This document shows positions 24,577 through 55,582 of a DNA stretch of 64,000 bases, one piece after another (position 1 is the stretch's first letter; every line of letters begins with the position of its first letter). The translations under genes were made by a program, and so were the position numbers. The notes under the pieces are model-generated. The model was not told where the DNA came from. It did no database searches and worked only from the letters and a program-made list of their open reading frames with translations. This DNA comes from an uncultured Methanosarcinales archaeon (lineage in GTDB: Archaea; Nanobdellota; Nanobdellia; Woesearchaeales; CAYMBN01), in the NCBI GenBank assembly GCA_964388715.1, contig CAYMBN010000004.1, forward strand, positions 31,391 through 95,390, in the 5' to 3' direction.

Positions 24577-24828
24577 ATGTACGATAACTTGACAAAAATA
24601 GTGTTGAAATTCATCAATTCTCAAGACATACCTCTCGAAACAAGAGAGATTATTGATCATGCAAAATCAAGATCAAAAACAACTACAAGGACAAAAGTTC
24701 TCCATAGGCTTAATCTTCTAAGAGGTGATGGCCTTATCAAAGGTAGATTCCTAAGCGCAGGCAAAGGTATCTGGATCTGGTGGAAATTAAATGCATTTAA
24801 AGGTAAAAAAAGAGGTAAGAATGTATAA
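24577..24828 (+). CDS. Small winged-helix DNA-binding protein
   Basis: 83 aa. ETREIIDHAKS....TRTKVLHRLNLLRGDGLIKG....GKGIWIWWK gives a helix-turn-helix plus wing pattern. A TTTAAATA box lies 32 nt upstream. The 3' end overlaps the start of the giant gene by 8 nt. Confidence 0.5.
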   Translation: MYDNLTKIVLKFINSQDIPLETREIIDHAKSRSKTTTRTKVLHRLNLLRGDGLIKGRFLSAGKGIWIWWKLNAFKGKKRGKNV

Positions 24829-38818: not shown

Positions 38819-39130
38819 AGTAGGGAAATGCCTAACCAACGGTGTTCAATACACTGAGGAAAGTCTGCCCACTACAAAAAGGCTACCTTTCCTAAAAAAA
38901 GGATCCAGAAATGGATGGCAACTGCTCAGAAACGAGACCACCTTTAAAATGAGATGATGCAGTGAAGCATCTGGTAACAGATGTTAGCTAACCTGTTGAT
39001 GTCTTTAAAGGAACGGATGAAACGGCAAGTCCTTAGCCAGTGCAAGTCAATTATTGGCGCTAAGTAGAATGTTAGGAAAGACTATCTGTCTAACAGAGTC
39101 TTACAAAAGGCAGCTTACAATTTCCCTACT
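38819..39130 (+). ncRNA. rnpB: RNase P RNA (about 312 nt)
   Basis: GAGGAAAGTCTGCCCAC matches CR-I (GAGGAAAGUCCGGGC). ACAGAGTCTTACAAAAGGCAGCTTACA matches CR-V (ACAGAA...GGCUUA). AGTAGGGAAAT (38819-38829) pairs perfectly with ATTTCCCTACT (39120-39130) as helix P1. A T8 run follows, and the region is locally GC-richer. Confidence 0.78.
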
Positions 39131-39683: not shown

Positions 39684-39838
39684 ATTTGAATTATTTTTTT
39701 TAAATTATATAAACTTAACTAAAAACCTATTTTCAGTCGAAAAACACAGAAACCTTTAAATACATCTTCCCCTTAAACTATTTAAATATTACTATCAGAG
39801 GGTTAAAATTATTATCCCTAAAAAACGAGGTGGGTTTA

Positions 39839-42800
39839 ATGAGTAGAGTTCTAAATAGATTAATAAATTTAATTTTAATTATGAGTTTGTTCATAATAAT
39901 TATCAACACTGTTTCTGCAGAAAATTGTTGGGAATATGACGCTACTGACAAAGACACTTGTGAAGCTGCAGACACTGATAATGATGGTAGTGCTGACGAC
40001 TGTTCATGGGATTCATGGGGTTATTATTGTATGGAAAAAGGTTGCTGGGATCATTGGACCCAAGATAGTTGTAGTACAGCAAACGCCTCTGGTTGTTTCT
40101 GGCAAACAGAAGCAAACATGGGCTGGGATGACACAACAGGTTGGTGTGAAGAAAGCGCTGATTGTTGGAATTATAATACAGACAATGGTTGTGCTAATGT
40201 AACTGGTTGTCAATGGAAATCCTCCTCATGTCAAGGCCCTTCTGAATGTTCTGATTATAATGATGAAACAAATTGTCATAATTCTGGTTATGGTTGTTGG
40301 TGGGATTATGGTGATTATTGTTATAACCCGGGTTGTTGGGATTATAAAGCAAAAACAAACTGCGAAACAAACAGTTGTTCTTGGGTATCAAATAGCTATT
40401 GCTCTGAAGCAGGTAACAACTGTTGGAATTATGGTAATCAAACAAGTTGTATTGCTGTAGATGGTTGTTCCTGGGAAACATATGGAGATAATGCTGATGA
40501 AGGTTGGTGTTATAAAAAAGGTTGCTGGGAATATAGTACAAATACTACTTGTTTAGCAGACCCAAGCGGCAATTGCGGTTGGGATACTACTTATACTTAT
40601 TGTTATGAAAAAGGTTGCCACCATTATGGGACCAATGATTCAACAACAGGTTGTGTAGCAAACCCTGATGAAGTTATTGGTGGCTGTCAATGGACTCAAA
40701 ATGGATTATGTAAAGAACCAACTTGTTCTGATTATTCTGATAATACAACTTGTACAACAAAAGTAGGTTGCTTCTGGTCAGGTACTGATAATACAACAGG
40801 AACTTGTAAATGGGAAGGTTGTTGGACTTATAATTCTGATTCTACTTGTAGTAACACAACAGGTTGTCAATGGAAACTTGCTTCATGTAATGGTGATTCA
40901 GGTTGTTCAGATTATACTTCATATTCAACTTGTACAGACGCTACTGAATCATGTTGGTGGTCATGGGGTAATTATTGTACTTCTCTTAATTGTTGGAGTT
41001 CACAATTTAGTAATAATCAAACAGCTTGTGAAACAAACACCCAAGCTCAAGGTTTAGATTGTAAATGGGATTCTTACTGGGGAGAATGCTGGGAAAAATG
41101 GTGTGGTGAATATTCCACAGAAAATGCTTGTAATACAAGCATTTCAGGAGATTGTAAATGGATTGATGGCTGGTGTCAAGAAGAAAATTGTTGGGGTTAT
41201 TCAGATACTGCCACCTGCGCAAGTAAGGGTTGTTCTTGGGATGCTGATTATGGATATTGTGAACAATCTGCTGCAGCAAGCTGTTATGACTTAAATGAAT
41301 CATTATGTGGAAGTGCTGCTTATAATAATTCATGTAGATGGGATCAATGGGGTAGTTATTGTACAGAAAAAGGTTGTTGGGACCTTGGAGATAATGTTAG
41401 TTGTACAAACGCAAACCTTTCAATTGAATGTGCTTGGACAGAAACATCAGAAGGATGGTGTGAAGATTCAGGAACACAATGCTGGGATCATTATTTACAA
41501 ACAGATTGTGAAGCAAATAATTGTACATGGGATTCATGGGGTAGTTATTGTATGACACCTGGTTGTTGGGATCACTGGACAGAACCAACATGTGGAAATG
41601 ATTCTGATTGTCAATGGAAAACATCTTCAAACTCTGGCTGGGACTGGGGCTGGTGTGAAAAAAGATCTTGCTGGAATTGGGATAACACAAATGCAAGTGC
41701 ATGTGTAAACACAAGCTTTAGTGAATACAGTCTTAATTGTTCATGGGATGCAGGTGATGCTGGTGAAGGTTGGTGTTATGGTCCATGGCAAAATAAATGT
41801 TGGTACAATGATTCATACATGGGTGGAAATGAATCAGCTTGTGTAACAAACAACATTAGTGGGGTAAATTGTTCATGGAAAGCAGTAACAGGATGGTGTT
41901 ATGAATCAAGAAAAACCTTTAGTGATTTTAATACAGAAGGTGAATGTCTAAAAAGTGGTTGGGGTAAATGGAATGGTACAGAATGTATTACCTCAGGTGA
42001 AACAATGCAAAATTCAGGTTGTTGGATATTTGATGGAAGAGCAGCAGAATGTGTAGCTGTAAGAGGTTGTACTTACAATTCAACAAGCAGAGAATGTGAA
42101 GGACTAGCAACAGAAGGAATACAATGTAATAATATTACAAAATTAGTAGTGAATAATGAAACAAATCAATCACTTTGTGATGTAATTCCAATGTTATCCA
42201 CTTGTTGTGTATGGGAAGCTGGCCAGTGTCAACTTACTTATGATACAACTTGTTGGGATCAAATGGCAGAAGCACCAGTAGGAGCAACAAACTGTATGGA
42301 TTATAATGCAATTGATAGTCCAACTTTATGTAATCAAATAACAGGAGCTCCTTGGTACATGCCATGTAACTGGAATAATGTAAGTGGACAATGTGAATTC
42401 AATGATGATATGGCCACAGACCTTGATAATATTAAAACAAAAAGAGAATGTGAATCAATAGGTGGTACATGGAAAACAGAAAATGTTTGTGGTACTGATA
42501 ATTGTGCATTTGTAAAACAATGGTGTGAAATGGAATCCGGCAGTTCTACATATGGTTGTGATGCATCTTGTTGGGCTTGTAATAGTTCAGAAGCATGTAG
42601 AGCATCTAAAAAAGATTATTGTCAATGGACAACAGACGGAAACATCTCACAAGGTGGGTTCTGTGATATTCCAGACACATTAGAAATACATGGAGATTGT
42701 GACAAATTTTGTGGGTCATGTGAACATTATTCAGGAGGAGATTCTACTCCTGAAAAAGCATGTAAAGCAAGTGCAGCACAATGTAAATGGGACAATGCAA

Positions 42801-45800
42801 CAGAAAACTGTGTTCAGAAAAAAAGTAAAGGATGTTCTGATGATTGTTTCTACTGTTTTGACAAAGAAGGTTGTAGTTTAAATGGTGGTGGTGCACAAGG
42901 AACATGTAAATGGGATGACTTTGATGGCATGTGTAAACCAACAGAATTTGATAGAGAAATCTGTTTTGATGGAGAAGATAATGATAACAATGATTTAATA
43001 GATTGTGAAGATCCAACATGTATGTTTGATCCATTCTGTGGTGGAAGTGAAATGGATGACTGTTGGAATTATTTAGATAATGCAAGTTGTGCTCAAAACA
43101 ATTGTTCTTGGTTCCAAGATCCTTGGACAAATACCAACAGATGTGGTGTAAAAGGTGAAAATTGTTGGATATATGAAACAAACAGTACAGGTTGTATAGG
43201 AGATATTAATTGCCAATGGTATAGTGACACACATTGTGCAATAAACCACACAAAATCAGACACTTGTTTCAAAAAAACAACTCAAACAGGTTGTGAAGCT
43301 GTTAGTTCTTGTAAATGGGAATCAAACTCATATAGTCCACAAGGAGGATGGTGTGATTTTGCTCCATTTGAATGTGGATGGAATCAAACATTACAACAAA
43401 GTAAAGGAAATTGTGAAAGTAATTCTTTATGTGCATGGGTGACAGATCCATTTAGTGGTACTGGTTGGTGTGAAACAAAATGTTTTGCAAGAAACAGTAG
43501 TGGTGGTCAAATTTACAAAACCCAGGCCACTTGTAATGCTGCTATTGCAGGAGGAATATGTGAATGGTCAACAGGTTGGTGTGAACCAAATAGCACAAGA
43601 ATAGGAGCAGTTTCTGGTGAAGATTGTGCATTCTATGATAATAATATTACACAATGTAATAATCAACCAGGGTGTGCATGGTTTGAACAAGCAATGATGG
43701 GTTCTGATTTTGAACATGGCATGGGTGGAGGTTTCTTTGGCTCACAATGTGACGAAAAAATGTCAATAAATTGTTGGGACTTTAGAAACCAATCAGCATG
43801 TAATGGCTCATTAAGAAATGGTTCAGCTAATGCAACAGGAGATGGAGATGCTTGTAGATGGGTTACAGAAGGAACTTGGTCATGGTGTGAACCATTAGGA
43901 ATGCATTGTGGTCCAATGCACGCACCTATTAATTCAACTACAGATCAACCACAATTAAATAATGCAACATGTGCAGGAGATCAATATTGTACTCTTGCTG
44001 AATATGAAGTAGGTAGAGTTGGTTGTATATCAAAGTGTCATAATACAACTTTAGACGAAACAACTTGTGGCCAAGTTGCAAATGGAAACTATTGTGTCTG
44101 GGGAGGTTCAGGCGCAGGAGGAGGAGCCGGCGGTGGCGGCGGTGACTTAACAATGGGTGGCTGGTGTGATCCAGTTGGTTCTCAAAAAATATTCAAAGAT
44201 ATGGAAGGAGGAGCACCTCATATGCTTGCCAATGATGTATGTGGTTCAGGCACAGCAGATAATGCTACTAAAGAATGGGTTGACATTTGTGGTTTAGGCA
44301 TTAAAGAAATGAATGAAGACTATGGAATGGGTATGGGACTACAAGCAATGACTCTTGCAGCTGCCTGTAATGGTGAAACATTATGGGATGAAACAACAGG
44401 ATCAGGAAGAAAAACAACAAAAGGATTCTGGTATCTTGACACAGATGGTGTTGAAACAGGAGGATGTTCATCTGATGATGGTGCTAATACTGGATTTGAA
44501 TTCAAATTCATAGCAAAATGGGAATGGTCAGATAGTGGATTAAAAGAAAAATTAACAGCAAAAAGATGTTTAAGTGGAAACTGGACAGCAGCTAACATCC
44601 GTCTAGATACTCATACAAAGAAAATGTGTCAAGAACTTCAAGGAATGCTTATTACAGTTAAAAAAGCAGACTTAACAAATCTTCCAGCATTGTTTAAGCC
44701 AGAAAGTTCAATGAGAATATATGCAGCTTCAGCTGGAGAAAACAACACAGCACAATTACCTTCAGATACTGTTGGTCCTGGTTATTACAAATCAGGAACA
44801 GTTGACTTTAAAACAGAAGATTGTGCAGCAATTGGAAAAGTTGACAAAGATACTGATGGATTCTATGCTTATGAAGATCCAGATTGTAAACAAATGTATC
44901 TTGATGAAGATAAAGGATTCAAATCAATTGAAGACTGTAAAACAGCACATGATGATGATATGAATGGGTTAACTAATTGTGCAGACCCTGCATGTAAAGA
45001 CGAACCAGTTTGTGGAGGATCTTTAGCACCAAATTCAAGTGATCATACAACACCAGAAATTAAAACACCAGATGTAAATGAACTTAAAACAAAAGCAGTT
45101 ATAGACTTTAAGACAGATGAACGTGCAAATGGAACTCTATTATTTTACAAAACAGATAGTTCATGTAGCTTGCTCAATGCAACTATCAGAGATAGGGGTT
45201 TATGGGCAGGAAATACTTCAAACAATTACACAAAGTACAACTTCAACAAAAAAATACCTATTAACAACTTAACAGCTAACCAAGACGCACTTAACTATTC
45301 ATTAAGTAATGGCACAACCTACTTTTACAAACTAAAAGTATGTGACATTTCAAGCAATTGTGCTCAATCTGGTTGTTTAAACTTCACAACAAAAGCAACA
45401 GCACAAACAAAAACAATGAAATTTACTGACCCTGATGCAAACCAAGCATGGACAATTGATGTAAACGCAACAGGAGATTATTCTGCACAAGGTGGTGGTT
45501 GTGGAACATCAAGTAATAATAGTGGTAGCTTAGGAAGTTTAATTGACCCTGAAGTAAATACACAGATTAATTTACAACAAACACAATCTGGTTCAGGTGG
45601 AAATATCACCGTAGGCATAGGCGGTATTGACACTTCAGCATCAAAGTCAATAGCAAACCTTGACATGGATGTTGGTACAGCTACTGGTCATGAATCAGGA
45701 TCAACAGAAAATTATGTTTGGATCAATGAAAGTGGTTGGGGTGGAGATCAAGGACTTCATACACAAGGTGCACCTGATAATGTCACTATTATTATGCCAG

Positions 45801-46732
45801 GAAGCGATACATATCTTTACGATTGTGAACAAATAGGCAGCAATGGTGCAGTTACAAATTGTACAGATATAACTGATTATGCAACAAGAAGTTATAATGA
45901 AACAACAGCAATGACAACATGGACAATTCCAAATCCAACAGCTGACTTGTGGTCTTACATTGTACCACAAACACCTTCAACAGCAACACCAGATACTTCT
46001 TCATCCTCTGGAGGAGGAGGCGGAGGCGGTGGCGGTGCCGCTGTTACAACAGAAGCAATTGAAGGAGAAAGTGAATCCAGAACATGGGACAAACTAAAAG
46101 CTGGTCAAGACGTATTGTTAGTATTAAGCAAAGATGCAATCCCAGTAAAAGAAATCAAAATAAAAGTTAAGAATGCAGCAACTAATGCTGAACTAAGAGT
46201 TGCAGAACTAACACAAGCACCAACAACAGATGAAACATTAACTACAGTGTACAAATATCTAAAAATGACATTTAGTAATGTAGCAGACTCTGATCTTGAA
46301 TCAGCAGAAGTTACATTTAAAGTAACAAAATCTTGGTTAAATGAACAAGGATTCACCAGAGATGATGTTGTACTAAAGAGATACAAAGATGGTAAATGGA
46401 CAGAACTTGCAACAGAAGTAGTTTCACAAGATACAGCTAAAATAACATTTAAATCAACAACACCTGGCTTCAGTTATTTTGCAGTTGGAATCAAGAAAAC
46501 AGCAGAAGAAGCTAAAAAAGCAGCAGCAGAAACAGGGGAAGAAGTTGTTGAAGAAGAACAAGTAGCAGAAGAAGTATCAGAACAAGAAGAAGTAACAGAA
46601 GAAAAGGAAACCAAGAAACTTAACTTACAACAAACAATTATCTGGATTGTGGTAATACTTGTTGTTTTAATAGCTGTTCTATTAATTATAGAACATAAAT
46701 ACAAAAACCAGAAAATCAAAAAGAAAAAATAA
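39839..46732 (+). CDS. Giant (about 2,297-aa) secreted, C-terminally anchored protein. It is dominated by a Cys/Trp-rich mini-repeat array, followed by an FN3-like domain and a PGF-pre-PGF-like domain.
   Basis: A GAGGTG Shine-Dalgarno sequence lies upstream of the ATG at 39839, and the signal peptide is ...IIIINTVSA|ENC. There are dozens of units such as CSWDSWGYYCMEKGCWDHWTQDSC. The C-terminal block ...VTKSWLNEQGFTRDDVVLKRYKDGKWTELAT...TTPGFSYFAVG is followed by an acidic linker, the TM IIWIVVILVVLIAVLLII and KKKK. Confidence 0.85.
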   Translation: MSRVLNRLINLILIMSLFIIIINTVSAENCWEYDATDKDTCEAADTDNDGSADDCSWDSWGYYCMEKGCWDHWTQDSCSTANASGCFWQTEANMGWDDTTGWCEESADCWNYNTDNGCANVTGCQWKSSSCQGPSECSDYNDETNCHNSGYGCWWDYGDYCYNPGCWDYKAKTNCETNSCSWVSNSYCSEAGNNCWNYGNQTSCIAVDGCSWETYGDNADEGWCYKKGCWEYSTNTTCLADPSGNCGWDTTYTYCYEKGCHHYGTNDSTTGCVANPDEVIGGCQWTQNGLCKEPTCSDYSDNTTCTTKVGCFWSGTDNTTGTCKWEGCWTYNSDSTCSNTTGCQWKLASCNGDSGCSDYTSYSTCTDATESCWWSWGNYCTSLNCWSSQFSNNQTACETNTQAQGLDCKWDSYWGECWEKWCGEYSTENACNTSISGDCKWIDGWCQEENCWGYSDTATCASKGCSWDADYGYCEQSAAASCYDLNESLCGSAAYNNSCRWDQWGSYCTEKGCWDLGDNVSCTNANLSIECAWTETSEGWCEDSGTQCWDHYLQTDCEANNCTWDSWGSYCMTPGCWDHWTEPTCGNDSDCQWKTSSNSGWDWGWCEKRSCWNWDNTNASACVNTSFSEYSLNCSWDAGDAGEGWCYGPWQNKCWYNDSYMGGNESACVTNNISGVNCSWKAVTGWCYESRKTFSDFNTEGECLKSGWGKWNGTECITSGETMQNSGCWIFDGRAAECVAVRGCTYNSTSRECEGLATEGIQCNNITKLVVNNETNQSLCDVIPMLSTCCVWEAGQCQLTYDTTCWDQMAEAPVGATNCMDYNAIDSPTLCNQITGAPWYMPCNWNNVSGQCEFNDDMATDLDNIKTKRECESIGGTWKTENVCGTDNCAFVKQWCEMESGSSTYGCDASCWACNSSEACRASKKDYCQWTTDGNISQGGFCDIPDTLEIHGDCDKFCGSCEHYSGGDSTPEKACKASAAQCKWDNATENCVQKKSKGCSDDCFYCFDKEGCSLNGGGAQGTCKWDDFDGMCKPTEFDREICFDGEDNDNNDLIDCEDPTCMFDPFCGGSEMDDCWNYLDNASCAQNNCSWFQDPWTNTNRCGVKGENCWIYETNSTGCIGDINCQWYSDTHCAINHTKSDTCFKKTTQTGCEAVSSCKWESNSYSPQGGWCDFAPFECGWNQTLQQSKGNCESNSLCAWVTDPFSGTGWCETKCFARNSSGGQIYKTQATCNAAIAGGICEWSTGWCEPNSTRIGAVSGEDCAFYDNNITQCNNQPGCAWFEQAMMGSDFEHGMGGGFFGSQCDEKMSINCWDFRNQSACNGSLRNGSANATGDGDACRWVTEGTWSWCEPLGMHCGPMHAPINSTTDQPQLNNATCAGDQYCTLAEYEVGRVGCISKCHNTTLDETTCGQVANGNYCVWGGSGAGGGAGGGGGDLTMGGWCDPVGSQKIFKDMEGGAPHMLANDVCGSGTADNATKEWVDICGLGIKEMNEDYGMGMGLQAMTLAAACNGETLWDETTGSGRKTTKGFWYLDTDGVETGGCSSDDGANTGFEFKFIAKWEWSDSGLKEKLTAKRCLSGNWTAANIRLDTHTKKMCQELQGMLITVKKADLTNLPALFKPESSMRIYAASAGENNTAQLPSDTVGPGYYKSGTVDFKTEDCAAIGKVDKDTDGFYAYEDPDCKQMYLDEDKGFKSIEDCKTAHDDDMNGLTNCADPACKDEPVCGGSLAPNSSDHTTPEIKTPDVNELKTKAVIDFKTDERANGTLLFYKTDSSCSLLNATIRDRGLWAGNTSNNYTKYNFNKKIPINNLTANQDALNYSLSNGTTYFYKLKVCDISSNCAQSGCLNFTTKATAQTKTMKFTDPDANQAWTIDVNATGDYSAQGGGCGTSSNNSGSLGSLIDPEVNTQINLQQTQSGSGGNITVGIGGIDTSASKSIANLDMDVGTATGHESGSTENYVWINESGWGGDQGLHTQGAPDNVTIIMPGSDTYLYDCEQIGSNGAVTNCTDITDYATRSYNETTAMTTWTIPNPTADLWSYIVPQTPSTATPDTSSSSGGGGGGGGGAAVTTEAIEGESESRTWDKLKAGQDVLLVLSKDAIPVKEIKIKVKNAATNAELRVAELTQAPTTDETLTTVYKYLKMTFSNVADSDLESAEVTFKVTKSWLNEQGFTRDDVVLKRYKDGKWTELATEVVSQDTAKITFKSTTPGFSYFAVGIKKTAEEAKKAAAETGEEVVEEEQVAEEVSEQEEVTEEKETKKLNLQQTIIWIVVILVVLIAVLLIIEHKYKNQKIKKKK

Positions 46733-46801: not shown

Positions 46802-47902
46802 ATGTCCACTAAAACAATAGAACAAATAAAAGAACTTGAAAAAGAACTTTCAACTACAAAGTATAACAAAAAAACACAACATCATATTGGTTTAATTAAA
46901 GCTAAAATAGCGAGATTAAAAGAAAAAGAGATTTCTCGTTCTAAATCTGGTCCAAAACAAGAAGGTTATTCAGTTAGAAAAACAGGAGATGGCACAGTTA
47001 TCCTTGTTGGTTTTCCTTCTGTTGGTAAATCCACTTTATTAAATGCATTAACAGATGCAAAATCAGAAATAGGCCATTATGATTTTACAACCCTCACCGT
47101 AGTTCCAGGATTAATGAAATATAATCACGCAAAAATCCAAATACTTGATGTTCCAGGTGTTGTAAGAGGTGCCGCCTCAGGAAGAGGGCGTGGAAAAGAA
47201 GTTTTATCTGTCATGCGAAGTGCAGACTTAGCTGTTGTCATTGTAGATGTTTTCCATCCTGGACATTGTAAAGTCTTATTAAAAGAAATTTATGATTCTG
47301 GCTTAAGGTTAAATAAAAAAAGACCTATTGTTAAAATCACAAAAACATTCAAAGGAGGCATTACAGTAGGTTCAACAGTAAAATTAAAAACATTAAAAAA
47401 ACAAACAATCAAAGATGTAATGAAAGAGTTCAAGATTGTTAATGCAGATATTATTATAAGAGAAAAGATTAACATTGATCAATTAATTGATGTAATTGAA
47501 GATAACAAAATATACATCCCAGCGATAACAGTTGTGAGTAAAATTGATATGGCCTCTGAAAAACAATTAAAAAAAGTTAAAAAACTTATTAAACCAGATA
47601 TCCTTATCTCTGCAGAAGAAAATATCAACATTAACGAGCTAAAAAAACTTATTTTTGATAAATTAAAGATAATAAGAGTTTATTGTAAACAAGTCAGAAA
47701 AAAAGCAGATTTAAAAGTACCTCTGATCCTTTTCAAAGGAGCAACATTAAATGACATGTGTCTAAAACTCCACAGAGACTTTGCAGACAAATTCAAGTTT
47801 GCTCGTTTATGGGGTAAATCAGCTAAATTTCCAGGACAAAAAATAGTAAAACTAAAACACGTTTTAAAAGACAAAGACATAGTAGAATTACATATAAGCT
47901 AA
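46802..47902 (+). CDS. Developmentally regulated GTP-binding protein (DRG/Rbg-type Obg-family GTPase with a TGS domain)
   Basis: It has GFPSVGKSTLLNALT (G1), DVPG (G3), SKID (G4) and a C-terminal TGS-like region (GATLNDMCLKLHRDF...IVELH). Confidence 0.85.
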   Translation: MSTKTIEQIKELEKELSTTKYNKKTQHHIGLIKAKIARLKEKEISRSKSGPKQEGYSVRKTGDGTVILVGFPSVGKSTLLNALTDAKSEIGHYDFTTLTVVPGLMKYNHAKIQILDVPGVVRGAASGRGRGKEVLSVMRSADLAVVIVDVFHPGHCKVLLKEIYDSGLRLNKKRPIVKITKTFKGGITVGSTVKLKTLKKQTIKDVMKEFKIVNADIIIREKINIDQLIDVIEDNKIYIPAITVVSKIDMASEKQLKKVKKLIKPDILISAEENININELKKLIFDKLKIIRVYCKQVRKKADLKVPLILFKGATLNDMCLKLHRDFADKFKFARLWGKSAKFPGQKIVKLKHVLKDKDIVELHIS

Positions 47903-48359: not shown

Positions 48360-48611
48360 ATGGCAAAAAAATCAACAGATGTTTCAAAAGATGAACAAGT
48401 GGGTTTTCATAAAGGTGCACTAGCAACGCTTGCAAAAGAAAGAGAAGAAATGGCTAAAATTCTTAATATAGTTGAACAACTTATGCAAATGCATATTAAA
48501 GCACTAAAAGAATTAGGAGTTGACTTAGTAGCAGCTGCTAAACAAGTAGCTAAATCAAAAGGAAAATCAGCCAAGAAAAAAGCAAAACCTATTGAAGATC
48601 TCTTAAAGTGA
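48360..48611 (+). CDS. Small helical protein of unknown function
   Basis: 83 aa. GGTGA lies 7 nt upstream of the ATG, and a TATA box lies further upstream. Confidence 0.4.
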   Translation: MAKKSTDVSKDEQVGFHKGALATLAKEREEMAKILNIVEQLMQMHIKALKELGVDLVAAAKQVAKSKGKSAKKKAKPIEDLLK

Positions 48612-49054
48612 GAAAGAAACTCAGAAAAAAAGAAATAAAAGGATTAAATAATAAACTAAAACAACAGTTTGCCAAAGAATTCTTTAATAAAAAAGAAGAT
48701 ATTATTATTGAGGATAATATAATCAAAAAAGACAACAAACCAATGTTTTTCTACTACAAAGACAAACTTATCCCTTCCCTTAAACTAATAATACAAGACA
48801 ACTTCCTAAAAAAAGTGGTTATTGACATGCCTGCTATTCCTTTTATAATAAAAGGAGCAGACATAATGCGCCCAGGTATCAAGGAATTAGATGAATTTGA
48901 AAAAAACGAAATCATTGTTATTGTTGATGAAACACATCAAAAACCTTTAGCAATAGGAATTTCTATGTTCTCAAGTTCTGAAATCAAAGAAATGGACAAA
49001 GGTAAAGTAATTAAAAACATCCATTATGTTGGAGACGTCACTTGGAACCAGTAG
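48608..49054 (+). CDS. PUA-domain RNA-binding protein (MCT-1/Tma20-like)
   Basis: The C-terminal part IKGADIMRPGI...VIVDETHQKPLAIGISMFSSSEI....KGKVIKNIHYVGD is a typical PUA domain. The GTG start overlaps the preceding stop. Confidence 0.6.
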   Translation: MRKKLRKKEIKGLNNKLKQQFAKEFFNKKEDIIIEDNIIKKDNKPMFFYYKDKLIPSLKLIIQDNFLKKVVIDMPAIPFIIKGADIMRPGIKELDEFEKNEIIVIVDETHQKPLAIGISMFSSSEIKEMDKGKVIKNIHYVGDVTWNQ

Positions 49055-49136
49055 TAACAAATAAACCAAAACATTTAAATAGTAGTGTGGTGTTATGTAT
49101 ATTAGTAGCTAGAAAAGTAAGATAATCATAGAAATA

Positions 49137-49144
49137 TTTAAATA
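49137..49144 (+). promoter_or_regulatory. TATA box at the left edge of the island
   Basis: TTTAAATA lies 32 nt upstream of an ATG at 49169 (a 25-codon sORF) and about 165 nt upstream of the first long island ORF. Confidence 0.35.
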
Positions 49145-49308
49145 TAAGTTACGTTTAAACACTTAAAGATGGCACAAAACCATAGAAAATGGAGTCTGTA
49201 TTTCTTTAATCTAGATATTGTGCCTGTTATTAAAACAATGTTCTAATGCCTCAGCACAACAAAAAAACGCAATAAATGCGGTGTGTGTTGCTGGAGGCCA
49301 CGGTTAAA

Positions 49309-50688
49309 ATGAACAAAGATAGCTCTATGGCTGCGGAATGTGTAATGGTTACTTCACCTATTGAAGAACAAATATTCTTAGATACTGTAATAAGAAAAAC
49401 CTTTAATGCTAATGGATTTTACAGAAGGAAAAACAAAATAGCTGCTTCTGGATATTTATCTACTATATTAACTTGTTTAAAATCACAGAATTTACTACCT
49501 ACAGAAACTTCAAAAGAAATATTAGCACATCCTGAAGTTAGATCCTTAATTAACTCTAAAATAATTGAAAGTGATTATTTATCCTATTCTGTTAGAAATG
49601 AAGCTCAAGGAGTAAGATTAGCTGAATTAGTTCTAAATGGTAACTTTGGACATTATAATTGGGAAATAAAGGATATAGAAGAAAGATTTAATGGTTCTGT
49701 TCTTGTTAATCACGTTAAAGAGTATACTCCAACTGTAGAAGGTTTGCCAATAAAAACAGTTCAAGTAGGATTAAAAGGCATTGAACCAAGTCTAAAAGCT
49801 AAGTACAGAAGGTTAGATACTGATGGTTCAGTTGGAGATGCAACAAGATTAAAAGTTGTTACTGAAAATAAAAATGATCTTCTTGAAGTAATCTCACAAT
49901 TTATTTATGATGTAGTTCCAAGATCAGAATTTGAAGTTGTAGAACCAATAGTTAATAATGTTTTAAAGTGGGATGTTGAATCTTATGAGGATTTACCGAA
50001 TGATGTAACCCAAGATTCATTAGAACTACCAGGATATCAATGTAAAAATAAAGTTAAGAAAAGTCAATTCGAAGCAGTCACAGTGCACTTAAGAGGAGAA
50101 GGTAAATATGATACCATGGAAGTACAATTTGTAACAGGAGCAATGGATAAAAGAAACAATTCTCCTGATCCAAATGAACCAGCTTCACATATAAATTACT
50201 TAAAAAGAAGAAATCAATTTGTCAAAACACATCACCCAAAAGGTCCTGAAGTCATTACAACATATGAATTACTAAATGAAAAAGGAAAACCAGGTAAAGG
50301 ACAGGTAACTCTTGATGTTGAGTGTGTTGCACCATGTCAAGCATGCTATTTAGGCTCAAAATTAAAATTAGATTTCAGTGAATATGATATCCAAACAAGA
50401 GAGCAAAAAGATTATAATGAAAAATTTAAACCTACCTCACCTTTAAGTCACAGAGAACAATACATCTTTGAAATTAATGATAAATATAGACACAGTGTCT
50501 TAATGAAACTTGAAGGAGTATTAGATGATTATCGGAATGAATTAAAAGATAAAAATATGAGAATTGCAAAAGAATGCAGTTTAATTACAGAAGAACAATT
50601 AGAACAAAGCCTAAGAAAAAGTTCAGTATATCTCCCAGGTATTGAATTTATACCAAAGCCAACTAATCAAGAAATAATTTCACATTAA
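49309..50688 (+). CDS. Divergent RelA/SpoT-like (RSH synthetase-fold) nucleotidyltransferase candidate
   Basis: Ordered motifs align to small alarmone synthetases. VGLKGIEPSLKAKYRR matches GRVKxxxSIxEKxxRK. GDATRLKVVT matches DIAGLRI. PGYQ matches GYRS. MEVQFVTGAM matches VEIQIRTxxM. SHINYLK matches EHxxxYK. I chose the ATG at 49309 because GGAGG lies 11 nt upstream; the track start is 49276. Confidence 0.4.
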   Translation: MNKDSSMAAECVMVTSPIEEQIFLDTVIRKTFNANGFYRRKNKIAASGYLSTILTCLKSQNLLPTETSKEILAHPEVRSLINSKIIESDYLSYSVRNEAQGVRLAELVLNGNFGHYNWEIKDIEERFNGSVLVNHVKEYTPTVEGLPIKTVQVGLKGIEPSLKAKYRRLDTDGSVGDATRLKVVTENKNDLLEVISQFIYDVVPRSEFEVVEPIVNNVLKWDVESYEDLPNDVTQDSLELPGYQCKNKVKKSQFEAVTVHLRGEGKYDTMEVQFVTGAMDKRNNSPDPNEPASHINYLKRRNQFVKTHHPKGPEVITTYELLNEKGKPGKGQVTLDVECVAPCQACYLGSKLKLDFSEYDIQTREQKDYNEKFKPTSPLSHREQYIFEINDKYRHSVLMKLEGVLDDYRNELKDKNMRIAKECSLITEEQLEQSLRKSSVYLPGIEFIPKPTNQEIISH

Positions 50689-50791: not shown

Positions 50792-50854
50792 TGCCTTGCA
50801 CACAATTCTTTTCTGCAAGACCAAAAACAGGTGTTTAAAGATACGAGGATAAAA

Positions 50855-51529
50855 ATGCAACCAGAACTTATAACTAACCCAAAAAAGTACGCTAAGGATG
50901 TTATGTATAGAGCAATGAGTAGTGCTTCTGGTAGAGGATATAATCCTTCTGTAGTTGGTTACTTATCTGATAATATGTTTACTGTTAATTTAGGAGAAGA
51001 TTCTGTTGATTTTGTAAATAATGGTATAGGGATGTTGTATGCAAAAACTAGAGCTAGTGGTGTAATAGACAGAAGGGGTGTAAGATTAACATTACAAGCT
51101 CTTTTGGAAGAATCAAGAAGCCTAGGTATTGAAAAATCATCTGATTTAGGGAATTTGATAATGCTTTTAGCATCGCTTTCTAATCCTGTTGGAAAGGATG
51201 GTATAAGTAGAAGGGATTTTTATGATGGTTGTGGTGGAGAATTGTATAGATTAGCTTCAAATTATCAAAAGAAAGGTATGCTTAGACCTGCAGATGATCC
51301 AAAGAAACCTATCTTTGTTGAGTTATGTAGATGGTTTCCTAACTATAGAGAACTGTTAACTTGTGCTATTGGTGAATGTGTTTCAGATGCTGATGGTGTG
51401 ATGAATGAATTATTATTTGGTGGAGAACTTCCTAGTTGGTTGAAGAAAATGTTAGTTGGTGATTCAAATCCTATTCCAATAATAAATATAACAAATGTAG
51501 GAGGTGATAAAATACCTATAATCAACTAG
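50855..51529 (+). CDS. Orphan 224-aa island protein, function unknown
   Basis: GAGGA lies 5 nt upstream of the ATG at 50855. The G/R/V-richer composition is unlike the flanking K/I/N-rich host proteins. No motif recognised. Confidence 0.55.
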   Translation: MQPELITNPKKYAKDVMYRAMSSASGRGYNPSVVGYLSDNMFTVNLGEDSVDFVNNGIGMLYAKTRASGVIDRRGVRLTLQALLEESRSLGIEKSSDLGNLIMLLASLSNPVGKDGISRRDFYDGCGGELYRLASNYQKKGMLRPADDPKKPIFVELCRWFPNYRELLTCAIGECVSDADGVMNELLFGGELPSWLKKMLVGDSNPIPIINITNVGGDKIPIIN

Positions 51530-51542
51530 GTAGAAGCTTAAA

Positions 51543-53279
51543 ATGAGATCAATGGTTTACTATGTAGGTCAACAGAAAGATGGTACATATTGTGTTCAAG
51601 TTGAGGAAAAAGGAATAGGAAAAAAAGGTTTTAAAAGATTTTTAAGTCCTATACAGTTGTTAGCAGAACTTCAGAGGAATAATAAGGAGATTATTGCTGT
51701 TAGGTCTGCGAGTCAATCATTAGGAGGAAAAAATGAAGATATTAATGCATTTATTGAAAGGTTGTCTGTTAATTTGAGAGCAGAAGATAGTTTATATCTT
51801 ACTTTAGAAGAAAGGTTAAAATATGCTGAAGAATATTCAGAACAGTCTGGCGCATTACTTTATCTGTTGTATGGAAGAGAAAGTTCAGATGGTAGTTTTG
51901 CAGTAGAGATGATAGATTTGTGTTCTAATAGAGAGGATACTCTTGCATTAGTTCTTCCTTACAAAGAATTATATGATTTAATTAAAAAATATAGTGATAA
52001 AGTTATAGGAGTTGGAGCAAAGAGTGAATATGTACGTGTTGCAGAAGGTAAACTTAATAAGTTGTTAGAAGGTAGGCAAAAACATTTGTGTGTTAATGAG
52101 TTTGAACAAACTTGTGGAAACAGATCAAAAGCTTACAAAATTATTCATGCTGTTGATGGAAAATATAAACTAGAAATTGATGATTTATTGTCGGCAGCAG
52201 AAGTAATAACAATGGTTGTTACTCGTGATGAACTTTATGAAAAAGTTGAAAGAAATCATCAGGAGATTTTAAGAGTATGTATGCCAAAGGATTCATTTAC
52301 TAATGAATTAAATGATTTGGTTAGTGAACTTAATGCCTATGTTAAAGAAAGAGAAGTAGTAAAAACTGTTATTCCTCAACATACCTCTGGAAAAAAGTCA
52401 AAATCTTATAGGGTTGCTTATTTAAATAATGAGATGTATATTTTAGTGATAGAAGATTTATTGTCACCAGATGGACCAATAAAAAGGATTGTTACTCGTG
52501 ATGAGCTTTTTAAGGAGGTTAAGAAGAATACTAAAGAAATTATTGGTGTTGATGCTTATGGTGAAGGATGTGATGGTGAACTTAAGCAATTAGTACATGA
52601 ATTAAATAGTATTCCCAATCCAGTTCCAGCAAAAGAGAGAGAAAACTTAAATGTTGATTTATGGGGTGTAAATAAAAAGAAAGGTGTTCAGTATTGTGAA
52701 ACTGTACATGGAGATATAATTGTCAGGACAAAAAAGTATGGAGTTGTTGAATATGAATATGTGAGTCCTAAAAAGTTAGATTTAATATGTGAAGAAGCAA
52801 AAAGGTTAGGAAAAAAGATTTCAGCTAACTCTGCTTTAAGATGTGGACCACTTCCAAATGATTTTTTAGAGAATTATAAAAGAAAAGTGGTTTATACAAT
52901 CTTAAGAGGAGATGCACCCGGTTTATATAATATAGAAATAAAAGATATTTTTAATCCTAATAGAAAGTTTAAGCTTTTAAAAGAAAATGAGCCAGTTAAA
53001 GCACAATCTAGATTCCAAACAATTCAGAGAGTAGATGGTTCAATTACTTTGGAAGAAGTTAATGAAAAAGCAAAAGATCCGGGCTTAGCAAATTATTTTG
53101 AAAATGTAAGATATGAAACTTTAGAAATGTCAGTAAGAAGTTATTCCTGTGATTTAATTGGTGTTGTTGCAAAGGAGCATAATAAGTGTGAAAATATGAA
53201 AAGAACTGCATCAAGATTAAATAGGTTAATTCCAACTCCCTTACAAAATGAAGGACGTGTGGAGGGAAGTTCTCTTTAG
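51543..53279 (+). CDS. 578-aa protein built from about 5-7 tandem copies of a roughly 91-92-aa module, function unknown
   Basis: Modules start near aa 5, 104, 196, 288 and 380. Each has Y.v....DG.Y.l.i.D, then V(T/L).(D/K)EL(Y/F)..V.K....I.GV, then a helix (L..LV.ELN). GTTACTCGTGATGA recurs at 52218 and 52491, an offset of 273 nt. Confidence 0.6.
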   Translation: MRSMVYYVGQQKDGTYCVQVEEKGIGKKGFKRFLSPIQLLAELQRNNKEIIAVRSASQSLGGKNEDINAFIERLSVNLRAEDSLYLTLEERLKYAEEYSEQSGALLYLLYGRESSDGSFAVEMIDLCSNREDTLALVLPYKELYDLIKKYSDKVIGVGAKSEYVRVAEGKLNKLLEGRQKHLCVNEFEQTCGNRSKAYKIIHAVDGKYKLEIDDLLSAAEVITMVVTRDELYEKVERNHQEILRVCMPKDSFTNELNDLVSELNAYVKEREVVKTVIPQHTSGKKSKSYRVAYLNNEMYILVIEDLLSPDGPIKRIVTRDELFKEVKKNTKEIIGVDAYGEGCDGELKQLVHELNSIPNPVPAKERENLNVDLWGVNKKKGVQYCETVHGDIIVRTKKYGVVEYEYVSPKKLDLICEEAKRLGKKISANSALRCGPLPNDFLENYKRKVVYTILRGDAPGLYNIEIKDIFNPNRKFKLLKENEPVKAQSRFQTIQRVDGSITLEEVNEKAKDPGLANYFENVRYETLEMSVRSYSCDLIGVVAKEHNKCENMKRTASRLNRLIPTPLQNEGRVEGSSL

Positions 53280-53396: not shown

Positions 53397-53846
53397 TTAC
53401 CCAATCCTCCGAACCTTAGGAACATAATTAAATATTCTTCCTTCTTTGTATTTACCGCAACCAAAACAATCTTCCTTATGTTTAACAATCACAAACCCAC
53501 TTAACTCATCACTGCAATCAATATCTTCTCCTTTTAACCATTTCTTTAAACCTTTTTCATCAACCTCAAGAACATTCTTCTTAGCATTAACTAATTGACT
53601 TCCTTCAATACTTAATCTAAGCTCACTTTTGATTTCACCAAAATACAATCCAAGAGAATTCACTCTTAATCTAGAAAAATCAATATCAAAAACATCTTTA
53701 TCAACCAAGTATAACTTACTTTTGTCAGATTTTAACCACACAAAATCTTGTTTAACACAACCATTCCACTGCTTTTTAATCATGTTAAGTATTTCTTTTG
53801 CTTGCTTCTTATTCAAAATAGTAAGATTTTGCATTAAACTCCCCAT
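53397..53846 (-). CDS. Nip7-like pre-PUA/PUA RNA-binding protein
   Basis: About 145-149 aa. The N-terminal half is a helical/beta region, and the C-terminal GFVIVKHKEDCFGCGKYKEGRIFNYVPK resembles a PUA-type beta barrel. An alternative ATG at 53834 overlaps the aIF5B stop. Confidence 0.4.
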   Translation of the reverse strand: MGSLMQNLTILNKKQAKEILNMIKKQWNGCVKQDFVWLKSDKSKLYLVDKDVFDIDFSRLRVNSLGLYFGEIKSELRLSIEGSQLVNAKKNVLEVDEKGLKKWLKGEDIDCSDELSGFVIVKHKEDCFGCGKYKEGRIFNYVPKVRRIG

Positions 53847-55582
53847 AAAACATTTTCTTTACGTTTAATCTCAGCAATCTCTTTAAGAATTTCAATATCT
53901 TCTTTTGTTAAATGTTTTTTAACTTCTTTCAATTTTCTGAACTCTTGTTCAGAAATAGCACTATATAATATATCACCTTCATTGATCTGCCTTCCAACAG
54001 TAACCTTACTCAGAGAAGCTGCAACTCTTTTCTCCTTTTCAGCTTTATTAACATTCTTTTTTTCCTCTTGCATACTTAAAACATTTGTTATCTCTTTCCC
54101 ATCCTTTTTCATTAAACCAATTCCAGTTTTCAAAATTCCACCGATAACTTCAACACCAACAATAGCAGGATTATTTTGTCTAAAAACATACCCTTTTAAC
54201 AATTCAACTTTACACGGCATTGTTAGTTCATCAAGTGCACCAGCTTCTTGCCTAATCTTTTCTTCTTTAACCCATGCTTCAAAGTCTTCAATCAGTTTGT
54301 AGATAACTTTATTTACAATAATCTTAACCTTACTACTCTTAACCTTAGAATCATCAACAACATTAAAACCCAATATAACACTTTTCAAAATATCTTCATT
54401 ACTTTCAGCATCAGATATATCTTTTTTAGTTATATTGCCAACTTGCGCTTTCCTTACCATAATATCTTTATCCTTAAGTAACTTAACCAATGCTTCTAAA
54501 CTACCTAATGTATCTGCTTTAATTATAATACCATCTTTATCAATTTCAATCAAAGCTTCCTTCACCTCTTTTTGAATCTCTTTTTTAACTTTCTCAACCT
54601 CACTTTGTTTACAAGAAACAATTGGCATCCCTGCAATAACTTTATCAAGTTCAGGTGCACTTATCTTAACACCAACTGCAGCAAAAACCTGTTTAACAGA
54701 CTTAAACTTAGTTTTTTTATCACGCATCTCTTTTAATGGTGCAGGTTCAAGCAAAGCTCTAACCTTAGTAACAATTGGTTTATCAACAGAACCAATTACA
54801 ATTGTATCATTTTGTTTCAATGTTCCATTATAAATTATTACATCAATTGTAGTACCAAGCCCTTTCTCCTCTTTAACTTCCAAAACACTTCCTTTTGCAT
54901 TTCCTTTTACATCACATTTAAGACATTCTTCCAAAAACTTTTGTGCAAGACCAGATATAACCATTAACAATTCAGGAATACCTTCTCCTGTCTTTGCACT
55001 GCAAGGAACAATTGCAATTTGTTTTGTAAAATCATCAATTCTATCAAACCTTTCAGAATTAAAATCAAGCTCACTTAATTTTCCAACAATCTCATACATC
55101 TTTTTTTCAACTGTTTCAACAACATTCTGTGTTTGTTTTTGAATATTATTTAACACAAACTTTTCTTTTGACTTCCAACCAGGTAAAAGATCAACTTTAT
55201 TTGCAGCAATTATAAACGGTGTCTTAGAAATCTTTAATATTTTAATTGATTCAAGTGTTTGCGGCTTAAAACCTTCATTAATATCAATAACAAGAATAGC
55301 AATATCAGCTAAATTTCCACCTCTTTTCCTTAAACTTGTAAATGCTTCGTGACCAGGTGTATCAATAAATAATAAACCAGGAATAGTCAACTTAGTTTTC
55401 TTAATCAAATCTCCACATATCTTTTGTATTGTTTTAATCGGAACAATTGACGCACCAACATGTTGTGTTATCATACCTGGTTCAGTATTAATTATAGTGC
55501 TGCCTCTAATCTTATCAAGTATACTTGACTTTCCATGGTCTACATGACCTACAACAGTACATATTGGACTTCTAATTGCCAT
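53834..55582 (-). CDS. infB: Translation initiation factor aIF5B (IF2P)
   Basis: It has RSPICTVVGHVDHGKSSILDKIRG (G1), DTPGHEAF (G3) and NKVD (G4). The four-domain length of 582 aa has no N-terminal extension, as expected for archaeal aIF5B. Confidence 0.92.
   Translation of the reverse strand: MAIRSPICTVVGHVDHGKSSILDKIRGSTIINTEPGMITQHVGASIVPIKTIQKICGDLIKKTKLTIPGLLFIDTPGHEAFTSLRKRGGNLADIAILVIDINEGFKPQTLESIKILKISKTPFIIAANKVDLLPGWKSKEKFVLNNIQKQTQNVVETVEKKMYEIVGKLSELDFNSERFDRIDDFTKQIAIVPCSAKTGEGIPELLMVISGLAQKFLEECLKCDVKGNAKGSVLEVKEEKGLGTTIDVIIYNGTLKQNDTIVIGSVDKPIVTKVRALLEPAPLKEMRDKKTKFKSVKQVFAAVGVKISAPELDKVIAGMPIVSCKQSEVEKVKKEIQKEVKEALIEIDKDGIIIKADTLGSLEALVKLLKDKDIMVRKAQVGNITKKDISDAESNEDILKSVILGFNVVDDSKVKSSKVKIIVNKVIYKLIEDFEAWVKEEKIRQEAGALDELTMPCKVELLKGYVFRQNNPAIVGVEVIGGILKTGIGLMKKDGKEITNVLSMQEEKKNVNKAEKEKRVAASLSKVTVGRQINEGDILYSAISEQEFRKLKEVKKHLTKEDIEILKEIAEIKRKENVLWGV

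Follow-up and report, generated by a model that had tools for sequence, protein, structure and literature searches.

Signalling by (p)ppGpp is regarded as essentially bacterial. The locus described here bears on whether any archaea use RelA/SpoT homologue (RSH) chemistry and, if they do, whether it acts on an alarmone or on an RNA end; an archaeal RSH family that is confined to one clade, syntenic, equipped with its own extensions and remodelled at its acceptor site would offer a handle on both questions. The locus lies in a 64-kb stretch of archaeal DNA of approximately 30% GC, referred to throughout as the window, and the original prediction, made by eye, was that one of its genes encodes a divergent RSH synthetase domain in an archaeal orphan protein.

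The RSH-like gene occupies positions 49309..50688 of the plus strand, on which all features given with coordinates below are located, and comprises 459 codons plus a stop according to the ORF list, a public gene call and the relative P0005. The longest mechanical ORF frame covers 49276..50688 (+), and an alternative public gene call begins at 49327. With the start at 49309, the N-terminus MNKDSSMAAE aligns with the N-terminus of P0005 (MNKDTSMALE), the window protein is identical to P0006, a 459-aa product of public gene calling, and GGAGG is found 11 nt upstream; on these comparisons, 49309 is a better start codon than 49276. An intact ORF thus covers the coordinates of the original prediction, and the peptides quoted there were all found at the positions given. 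The gene was recovered in several metagenomes with one SNP in all, a synonymous one, and a single synonymous SNP among near-identical copies leaves a test of selection without power. An ORF of 459 codons that recurs across metagenomes in DNA of approximately 30% GC is a genuine gene.

Taken alone, the window protein gave no matches in Pfam, NCBIfam, PADLOC, PHROGs or the PDB (phmmer), nothing meaningful in a tblastn search against phages, and no match to PF04607 at E<=1; comparison of the single sequence with an RSH profile of 5 sequences by hhalign yielded 0.24% probability (P=0.25). With no significant profile match, the protein is not placed in PF04607 RelA_SpoT by its own sequence. An exhaustive HMMER scan that covered 1.8 billion representative proteins returned the true relatives P0002 (E 3.6e-19), P0003 (E 2.1e-18) and P0005 (E 1.6e-11), and these are the only 3 distinct relatives among about 15 billion proteins, giving a family of about four known members; the term orphan was nearly correct. 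One further candidate, P0004 (2059 aa, with BED-type zinc-finger-like repeats), aligned only with residues 239-284 ('LELPGYQCKNK') in 10 repeated stretches and was discarded as a spurious, repeat-driven match. A metagenome scan for further relatives returned only an already known contig, a viral scan returned no copies of the family, and no close bacterial counterpart was returned by the searches run.

The three relatives connect the window protein to known RSHs. An HMM of P0002, P0003 and P0005 matched the window protein collinearly over residues 81-428 with 114 bits (E 3.6e-37), and the relatives themselves matched PF04607 over positions 2-110 of 113 with 42.3, 38.0 and 30.6 bits, respectively, above the gathering score of 27. 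The family domain profile compared with a RelP/RelQ-like/RelA profile of only 5 sequences gave an hhalign probability of 81.5% (E 1.2e-5), with Syn1-Syn4 paired with their counterparts, and the full-length family profile gave 63.8%; neither value is decisive by itself. In the PDB, matches of the family domain profile at E<=10 were exclusively to RelA and RelSeq and were sub-threshold; the full-length family profile and the P0002 domain each had 0 PDB matches, and the relatives had no match in NCBIfam. The RSH relationship holds because of the chain from the window protein to its three relatives and from these to PF04607, and this transitive membership in SYNTH/PF04607 through homologous intermediates supports the window gene as a very distant RelA/SpoT homologue. 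The divergent synthetase domain of the original prediction was borne out in this way; the resemblance seen by eye was not significant for the window protein alone and became significant only through the three intermediates. In word-indexed searches, the single sequence returned only itself, alignment A1 returned only P0001 and P0002, and the domain alignment A2 returned nothing, missing the family members themselves. By way of three intermediates, a protein that neither Pfam nor word-indexed searching reveals could still be placed.

The RelA/SpoT-type synthetase (SYNTH, PF04607-like) core, assigned from hhalign and from alignment to the PF04607-matching stretches of the three relatives, comprises aa 148-299 (49750..50205), and all five ordered motifs, Syn1-Syn5, were found within it. 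Syn1 (GLKGIEPSLKAKYRR, 49768..49812), Syn2 (GDATRLKVVT, 49834..49863) and Syn4 (MEVQFVTGAMDKRN, beginning MEVQFVTGAM, 50116..50157) were located by family and profile alignment, and Syn5 (ASHINYLK, 50182..50205; compare AAHWKYK of E. coli RelA) by family alignment. These four agree with the blocks proposed by eye, as family and profile-profile alignment showed, but the third block proposed, PGYQ (50029-50040), does not represent Syn3. It sits inside a region (49864..50064; 19-column gap in the alignment with RelP) made up of a helix and, on the acceptor (G-loop) side, an insertion that is variable and specific to the family, the insertion before Syn3 measuring 35-55 aa across the family. The true Syn3 is QFEAVTVHL (50065..50091), which aligns with YQAVHINI of the relatives, with GYRSLH of RelP and, in general, with GY(R/Q)S(L/I)H.

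Residues invariant in all four proteins are K, S, K and R of Syn1 (Lys156, Ser161, Lys165 and Arg167 of the window protein), the Mg2+-binding Asp of Syn2 (Asp177), Glu and Gln of Syn4 (Glu271 and Gln273), and His and Tyr of Syn5 (His294 and Tyr297), the roles of which are known from characterised enzymes (PMC11782079). The catalytic residues expected from the original prediction, Asp177 and Glu271, are present; however, the window protein has replaced the Syn1 Arg by Gly154, the Syn2 Gly by Arg180, the Syn3 Tyr by Phe254 and the Syn3 His by Thr258, each of which is kept by all three relatives. Gly154 stands at the site of FaRel2 R64, an Arg crucial for stacking the adenine, for binding phosphate and for contacts to the ribose and the alpha,beta phosphates, and Phe254 stands at the site of the acceptor-stacking Tyr, where Tyr→Phe is the field's usual catalytically impairing substitution (PMC11782079). 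Other departures are shared by the whole family: Lys182 and its equivalents take the place of the second adenine-stacking Arg in 4/4 members, the DY..PK..G acceptor motif is absent, and the Arg of EIQIRT is missing in 4/4 members, the window protein having Val275 at that site, as originally noted. In total, 47 columns are family-invariant, and they are spread over the N-terminal, core and C-terminal regions.

A chance pattern of motifs in an AT-rich, Lys/Glu-rich orphan unrelated to RSHs would account for the lack of Pfam, PDB and hhalign support for the window protein alone and for PGYQ, one of the five original blocks, which was indeed a chance match. This explanation is highly improbable, since it is already contradicted by the strong and collinear transitive chain; the family-invariant residues also fall on RSH catalytic positions, and the near-matches in the PDB are all RSH enzymes.

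The residue pattern instead points, by analogy with bacterial enzymes, to a particular kind of RSH. The gene probably belongs, as a very divergent member, to a small archaeal RSH family restricted to one clade, and its product is expected to be a pyrophosphokinase that is attenuated or retargeted, not a standard (p)ppGpp synthetase. The architecture is SAS-like (small alarmone synthetase-like), with a SYNTH core of predicted NTase fold between two family-specific extensions of approximately 150 aa. By homology, the Syn1 helix with its basic residues would hold Mg-ATP together with the Asp of Syn2 and the Glu/Gln of Syn4, and a purine nucleoside moiety, stacked on the aromatic residue of Syn3, would receive the beta,gamma-pyrophosphate at its 3'-OH. 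On the acceptor side, the whole family is remodelled by the 35-55 aa insertion and the loss of DY..PK..G and of the Syn4 Arg, so that GDP or GTP need not be the acceptor. Attenuation or retargeting would be expected of the window protein because the ligands of the donor phosphates and the metal are kept while four relative-conserved residues are replaced. The protein may thus be viewed as a natural experiment in which the ATP and Mg2+ ligands are retained alongside Tyr→Phe and Arg→Gly, substitutions with which RSHs are deliberately crippled in experiments.

The same residues bear on two other accounts of function. It is somewhat unlikely that the protein is a catalytically dead pseudoenzyme in this organism, kept for a structural or nucleotide-binding (sensor) role. 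The four substitutions at essential donor-stacking and acceptor sites kept by the relatives would suit such a role, as would the intact ORF and the 47 invariant columns across all three regions, which argue for ongoing selection on the fold and not for decay; however, the invariance of the Mg2+ Asp, the Syn4 Glu/Gln and the whole triphosphate-binding helix would be unexpected if catalysis or ATP binding were dispensable, and Phe254 could still stack a base. Such stacking, with Arg180 perhaps partly standing in for the Syn1 Arg, is a counterpoint to the favoured reading as well, and would mean that the window protein could be fully active. A fully functional SAS whose product, (p)ppGpp or (pp)pApp, serves this archaeal lineage as the second messenger of a stringent-response-like signal is nevertheless unlikely. 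The SYNTH domain with its metal and triphosphate ligands intact, the full R/G/Y/H set of the relatives, the basic residues ahead of the aromatic residue of Syn3, which nucleotide-using SASs also have, and a chromosomal, vertically inherited gene in a translation-related neighbourhood are all consistent with it, as is the report that RelA/SpoT-annotated genes are common in DPANN MAGs (19-69% of MAGs in several DPANN phyla; PMC8407392). Against it, Tyr→Phe, Arg→Gly, Gly→Arg and His→Thr affect invariant and functionally essential sites of characterised enzymes (PMC11782079; Kurata et al.), the family lacks the EIQIRT Arg and DY..PK..G and carries a large acceptor-side insertion, no alarmone hydrolase (HD) gene was found among the 45 ORFs scanned in the 64-kb window, a small sample, and (p)ppGpp has gone undetected in the archaea tested to date (PMC10249747). 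The rarity of RSHs in archaea, asserted in the original prediction, is true of cultured archaea but, given the DPANN figures (PMC8407392), not of archaea overall.

The extensions on either side of the core, claimed at first sight of the sequence, are real and family-conserved, with lengths of approximately 147 aa and 160 aa. In alignment A1, the helical N-terminal extension (aa 1-147, 49309..49749) contains the conserved blocks Y(L/I)xY(A/S)xR(D/N)E (49576-49602) and (V/I)LNG(E/N) (49627-49644), and no known domain was found in it with Pfam or the PDB. In the C-terminal extension (aa 300-459, 50206..50685), the strand block EVITTYEL (50248-50271) is conserved and a long helix is predicted at the C-terminal end; this extension, too, holds no known domain and matched no PDB chain by sequence, 7ZTB included, and no YXXY motif is conserved in the C-terminal region (alignment A1, by eye). 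The cysteine cluster CVAPCQAC (50323-50346), pointed out earlier as a feature, is present in the window protein and not conserved in the family alignment, and is lineage-specific noise; a zinc finger at this site was rejected because the cysteines are missing from every relative. Neither the window protein nor the relatives matched HD, TGS or ACT domains in Pfam, and the family is not of the long RSH type. AlphaFold2 models were of low confidence (pLDDT 34.6 from the single sequence and 48.8 from 4 sequences), and the best Foldseek match of these models in the PDB (E 0.22, no RSH listed) was noise; the predicted order of strands and helices is compatible with an NTase-type alpha/beta fold.

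Upstream of the gene, a 5' leader hairpin was found at 49248..49298, with hairpins at the same position and compensatory stem changes in all relatives. Its 3' arm includes the GGAGG that precedes the start codon, a conserved block (TCTAATGCC, 49242-50) lies immediately 5' of it, and it had no match in Rfam; the TYTAAYGCC block is not a dispersed repeat within the 64-kb window. A TATA-like A/T box (aatatttaaatataag, 49132..49148) aligns with AAC(C/A)TATATA(C/T)T of the relatives and is a putative archaeal promoter, which would imply a long leader of approximately 130-150 nt.

The surroundings of the gene were compared among the relatives. The window, L003, L004, L005 and L008 share one gene order, PUA protein → RSH-like → variable slot ← NIP7-like ← aIF5B; L008, the one MAG returned by the GTDB genome scan, encodes the same protein as L005. 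L008 is the sole GTDB species-representative genome with a relative and is labelled 'uncultured Methanosarcinales archaeon'; this label fits poorly with the GC content of approximately 29-31% and the gene content. The genes downstream of the RSH-like gene differ in each relative, and the 232-aa and 578-aa downstream orphans occur in the window lineage only; a TA or operon partnership with these orphans was rejected because they are missing from the relatives. There were no PADLOC or PHROG matches at the locus, which is not a defence island, and neither a toxSAS-type bi- or tricistronic antitoxin nor a fused pZFD/YXXY antitoxin was found in the window or the relatives. The RSH-like gene evolves fastest in its neighbourhood (24-25% identity, compared to 64% for aIF5B). 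The gene is passed on vertically at a fixed chromosomal site and is not a mobile or defence element.

These observations make it distinctly unlikely that the protein is a toxSAS/CapRel-like single-chain effector with the C-terminal extension as in-cis inhibitor and sensor. A SYNTH domain followed by a C-terminal extension of approximately 150 aa does resemble fused CapRel, toxSASs use N-terminal helical extensions for tRNA binding (PMC11782079), tRNA-using and nucleotide-using SASs cannot be told apart by any sequence signature (Kurata et al.), and the adjoining slot varies, being occupied in L005 by a Fic/DOC-domain gene; an inhibitor or sensor role of the extension would also explain why the gene evolves much faster than its neighbours. 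However, outside the SYNTH core there is no similarity to CapRel or any PDB chain, the YXXY motif and any PADLOC, phage, viral or defence-island association are lacking, the position is fixed in four related genomes, unlike that of mobile TA or defence genes, and the window copy carries the Tyr→Phe change that detoxifies toxSASs. The rapid evolution of the gene would suit a role in conflict or defence, and in this respect runs counter to the favoured reading of an attenuated or retargeted pyrophosphokinase.

The favoured reading may be extended, although the extension is doubtful, to a vertically inherited, archaea-specific RSH subfamily that is no recent bacterial import, is tied to its translation-factor neighbourhood (PUA/eIF2D-like, NIP7-like, aIF5B, DRG), is controlled through the structured leader and, instead of GDP or GTP, pyrophosphorylates an acceptor such as an RNA 3' end or an adenine nucleotide. 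Were this true, low-GC and probably DPANN-like archaea would have their own stringent-response-like control of translation.

Jimmy et al. are said to have recognised 30 named SAS subfamilies in 2020. The window family shares with SASs and RelA the order of Syn1-Syn5, the Lys of RxK, the S..K..R triphosphate helix, the Mg2+ Asp, the Glu/Gln of ExQ and the H..Y of Syn5, and, as in SASs, HD, TGS and ACT domains are lacking. From Syn3 to Syn5, the relatives (YQAVH...AEIQV.T...ASHLKY) most resemble RelA (GYQSIH...VEIQIRT...AAHWKY). In contrast to these enzymes, the family is archaeal, chromosomal and syntenic, adds N- and C-terminal extensions without known homologues and the pre-Syn3 insertion, has Lys for the second adenine-stacking Arg, and has neither the QIRT Arg nor DY..PK..G, to which the window protein alone, itself below Pfam detection, adds its Arg→Gly, Gly→Arg, Tyr→Phe and His→Thr changes. 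With the toxSASs FaRel2, PhRel2, CapRel-SJ46 and Tas1/FaRel it has the SYNTH catalytic core, fast evolution and an acceptor specificity that cannot be read from sequence in common, and with FaRel2 and CapRel also extra N-terminal helices and a C-terminal extension; it differs from the toxSASs in having no conserved adjacent antitoxin and no sequence-detectable pZFD/YXXY C-terminal domain, and in lacking a PADLOC match and any phage or defence-island context, and the window copy naturally bears the substitution used to detoxify such toxins. Among archaea, which are otherwise without long RSHs, the divRel SAS of Methanosarcina acetivorans and archaeal SAHs were noted earlier (Atkinson 2011), and these, the RelA/SpoT-annotated genes of DPANN MAGs (PMC8407392) and the window family are alike single-domain members of the RSH superfamily. 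Sporadic import has been the usual view of RSH genes in archaea (PMC3153485), and the earlier archaeal cases were interpreted as occasional transfers from bacteria; the window family differs in being syntenic in four related low-GC archaeal genomes.

The original prediction, read from the DNA by eye, was that the 459-aa product of the gene at 49309..50688 (+ strand) carries a divergent RelA/SpoT-homologue (RSH) signature. Searches with this protein alone gave no RelA_SpoT match in Pfam at E<=1 and nothing in NCBIfam, PADLOC, PHROGs or, by phmmer, the PDB; when the lone sequence was compared with a small RSH profile, hhalign aligned the Syn4 stretch only (P=0.25), and 5.8 billion protein clusters, searched by word index, yielded no match other than the protein itself. 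Judged from its own sequence, the RSH resemblance of the window protein is not more than chance. However, when 1.84 billion representatives were scanned exhaustively with HMMER, three proteins emerged as true relatives: P0002 (405 aa, E 3.6e-19), P0003 (423 aa, E 2.1e-18) and P0005 (410 aa, E 1.6e-11). The signature was recovered through these; P0004, a repeat protein from the same scan, was rejected as a spurious match. An HMM of the relatives alone matched the window protein collinearly over residues 81-428 (114 bits, E 3.6e-37), and each relative exceeded the PF04607 gathering score of 27 (42.3, 38.0 and 30.6 bits, respectively; profile positions 2-110/113). The domain profile of the family (the relatives plus the window protein) aligned motif to motif (81.5% probability, E 1.2e-5) with RSH reference alignment A3, in which RelP and RelQ-like sequences extracted from PDB alignments are combined with E. 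coli RelA, obtained from the genome record; the full-length profile reached 63.8% probability against the RSH profile. In a search of 177,635 PDB sequences at E<=10, the domain profile found no proteins other than RelA (E 0.4-0.6) and RelSeq (E 8.5); these matches covered Syn3-Syn5. Taken together, the matches through the relatives and the profile alignments indicate, by transitive homology, that the window protein is very probably a homologue of the RSH synthetase (SYNTH) domain, and the core of the original prediction is supported with its details corrected.

Four of the five ordered blocks first proposed were retained, namely Syn1 (GLKGIEPSLKAKYRR, 49768-49812), Syn2 (GDATRLKVVT, 49834-49863), Syn4 (MEVQFVT..., from 50116) and Syn5 (ASHINYLK, 50182-50205). 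The third, placed at PGYQ (50029-50040), falls inside the variable insertion that, with a helix, separates Syn2 from Syn3; Syn3 is instead QFEAVTVHL (50065-50091), in which FEAVTVHL corresponds to YQAVH(I/M)N(I/V) of the relatives. The long N- and C-terminal extensions (aa 1-147 and 300-459) are indeed present, are conserved in the family and match nothing known, but none of the three relatives has an equivalent of the CVAPCQAC cluster. AlphaFold2 gave a pLDDT of 34.6 from one sequence and of 48.8 (pTM 0.37) from the four-sequence alignment, and a Foldseek search of the PDB with the low-confidence model returned nothing below E 0.2 and listed no RSH. The elements predicted in that model, a strand (Syn1), short helix, strand (Syn2), helix, two strands (Syn3, Syn4) and helix (Syn5), would be compatible in order with the RSH core, and carry little weight at such confidence.

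The gene lies within a long ORF (49276..50688, + strand), and three observations speak for the start at 49309: the N-terminus MNKDSSMAAE resembles MNKDTSMALE of P0005, GGAGG lies 11 nt upstream, and P0006, a public gene call of 459 aa, is identical. All peptides quoted in the original prediction lie where it had placed them, and the gene recurs in several metagenome assemblies with one synonymous SNP as the sole difference. The gap of ~270 nt that separates the PUA gene from the RSH-like gene is kept in all relatives and carries a conserved block, T(C/T)TAA(T/C)GCC, followed by a hairpin at the same position in each (window 49242-49298; relatives' loci L003 ~845-875, L005 ~3590-3625 and L004 ~120-160). 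Compensatory changes occur in its basal stem (GCCUC/GAGGC, GCCGCA/UGCGGC, GCCUUG/CAAGGC and GCCUUAAC.../...GUUGGGGC). Downstream of the hairpin come a Shine-Dalgarno-like AGGUAAU and then the start codon; the 3' arm of the window hairpin includes GGAGG. Folding z-scores were -1.6 to -3.4 and no Rfam match was found for the hairpin, which might be a leader element acting on translation or stability.

In the window, the RSH-like gene is preceded by a PUA-domain gene (48608-49054, →) and followed by genes for two orphans of 232 aa (50831-51529, →) and 578 aa (51543-53279, →), 13 nt apart, then by NIP7-like PUA protein (53397-53846, ←) and aIF5B (53834-55582, ←) genes. The orphans have no counterparts in the related loci and no Pfam, NCBIfam, PADLOC or PHROG match; the larger consists of ~100-aa tandem repeats (195-295 versus 295-395: 43% identity, pairwise E 5e-13; other segments weaker). 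The order in the relatives is PUA → RSH-like ← NIP7-like ... ← aIF5B, and the RSH-like/NIP7-like genes are separated from aIF5B by a slot whose content varies from locus to locus. The two orphans are the variable content in the window, L003 holds a 326-aa orphan (2614-3594) with a homologue in L004 (1958-2770), and L005 holds a 315-aa orphan and a Fic/DOC-domain protein (5432-6457; PF02661, 29.9 bits versus a gathering score of 24) unrelated to the 326-aa family. This slot may be a small accessory-gene hotspot next to aIF5B. Identities between the window and L003/L005, and between L003 and L005, are 64% and 76% for aIF5B, 45-51% and 60% for the PUA protein, 44-47% and 65% for the NIP7-like protein, and 24-25% and 37% for the RSH-like protein; in each comparison, the gene for the latter thus evolves faster than every other syntenic gene. 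Because the related loci show no conserved partner gene beside it, and neither viral copies nor a defence-model match were found for the family, a vertically inherited, clade-specific gene fits better than a mobile toxin-antitoxin module.

The window DNA is archaeal, with an archaeal RNase P RNA (38820-39129, 154 bits) and genes for PCNA, aIF5B and a DRG-type GTPase. The surroundings are translation-related throughout (DRG, PUA/eIF2D-like, NIP7-like, aIF5B and a class I Trp/Tyr-type aminoacyl-tRNA synthetase). The DRG-family GTPase (46802-47902, +), 1.4 kb upstream of the RSH-like gene, has a C-terminal TGS domain, the type with which long RSHs sense the ribosome and tRNA; since DRG belongs to the usual archaeal gene set, its proximity is probably a coincidence. 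Bacterial-type QueA (3331-4371, +; PF02547, E 1e-114) and epoxyqueuosine reductase QueH (4471-5001, -; PF02677, E 6e-67) are also encoded, and since archaea usually make archaeosine, this suggests acquired tRNA-queuosine modification. Giant ORFs occupy 24791-34468 (+, 3225 aa) and 39830-46732 (+, 2300 aa), the latter in a stretch that is richer in GC (0.37-0.38) than the rest of the window and has, by comparison, a strongly positive GC skew. The low GC (~30%), giant ORFs and queuosine genes give a DPANN-like look. Only one GTDB species-representative genome holds a relative, a MAG labelled 'uncultured Methanosarcinales archaeon' (L008, CAYZMD010000042.1; 29% GC, same locus as L005), and this doubtful-looking label could hide a DPANN-like lineage.

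In the FaRel2:APCPP structure, the donor adenine is stacked between R64 (Syn1) and R95 (Syn2), the base is also coordinated by G93 and Q147, and its amino group is recognised by E145. The triphosphate is bound by R64, K66, S70, K74 and R77 and Mg2+ by D90, and the acceptor stacks on Y128 of the G-loop (PMC11782079). The window protein (459-aa numbering) keeps K66, S70, K74, R77, D90, E145 and Q147 as K156, S161, K165, R167, D177, E271 and Q273, including the catalytic Asp and Glu (D177, E271) recognised at the outset. Replaced are R64 (G154), G93 (R180), R95 (K182), Y128 (F254), the His of GYxxxH (T258) and, as first noticed, the Arg of QIRT (V275). All three relatives keep the R64, G93 and Y128 equivalents and the His, and resemble the window protein in having Lys in place of R95 and no QIRT Arg; an insertion of 35-55 aa on the acceptor side is present family-wide. 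Selection thus appears to act on the donor (Mg-ATP) site of all four proteins, and remodelling of the acceptor side is apparent across the family, while the window copy seems to have further lost residues essential in characterised enzymes. Activity is lost with D90G or Y128A (Kurata et al.), and Tyr→Phe is a 'well-established' catalytically impairing substitution (PMC11782079). The protein may be a fully active alarmone synthetase, in line with its retained donor residues and at odds with F254, or a dead pseudoenzyme, in line with its replacements and at odds with the selection suggested for the donor site. It may also be a CapRel-like RNA-targeting effector; no sequence signature separates tRNA-modifying from nucleotide-modifying small alarmone synthetases (SASs) (Kurata et al.), and the missing defence-model match speaks against this reading. 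The better-supported reading, reasonably likely from the residue pattern, is a Mg-ATP-dependent pyrophosphokinase that resembles SASs but has an acceptor site departing from the canonical one; in this organism it is probably attenuated or retargeted.

Atkinson et al. (2011) encountered archaeal RSHs only sporadically, for example a few SAHs and the divRel SAS of Methanosarcina acetivorans, and ascribed them to bacterial transfer; (p)ppGpp was undetected in the archaea tested, according to a 2023 review (PMC10249747), and RelA/SpoT-annotated genes of predicted bacterial origin are reported for several DPANN phyla, in 19-69% of their MAGs (PMC8407392). The kind of domain is therefore already known, and its presence in archaea is on record; what seems new is a small syntenic family with its own extensions and remodelled acceptor side, together with the apparently 'crippled' natural residue set of the window copy. 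The family shares the Syn1-Syn5 order with RelP, RelQ-like proteins and RelA but lacks the DY..PK..G stretch and the QIRT Arg, and where FaRel2 has R64, G93, R95 and Y128, the window protein has G154, R180, K182 and F254.
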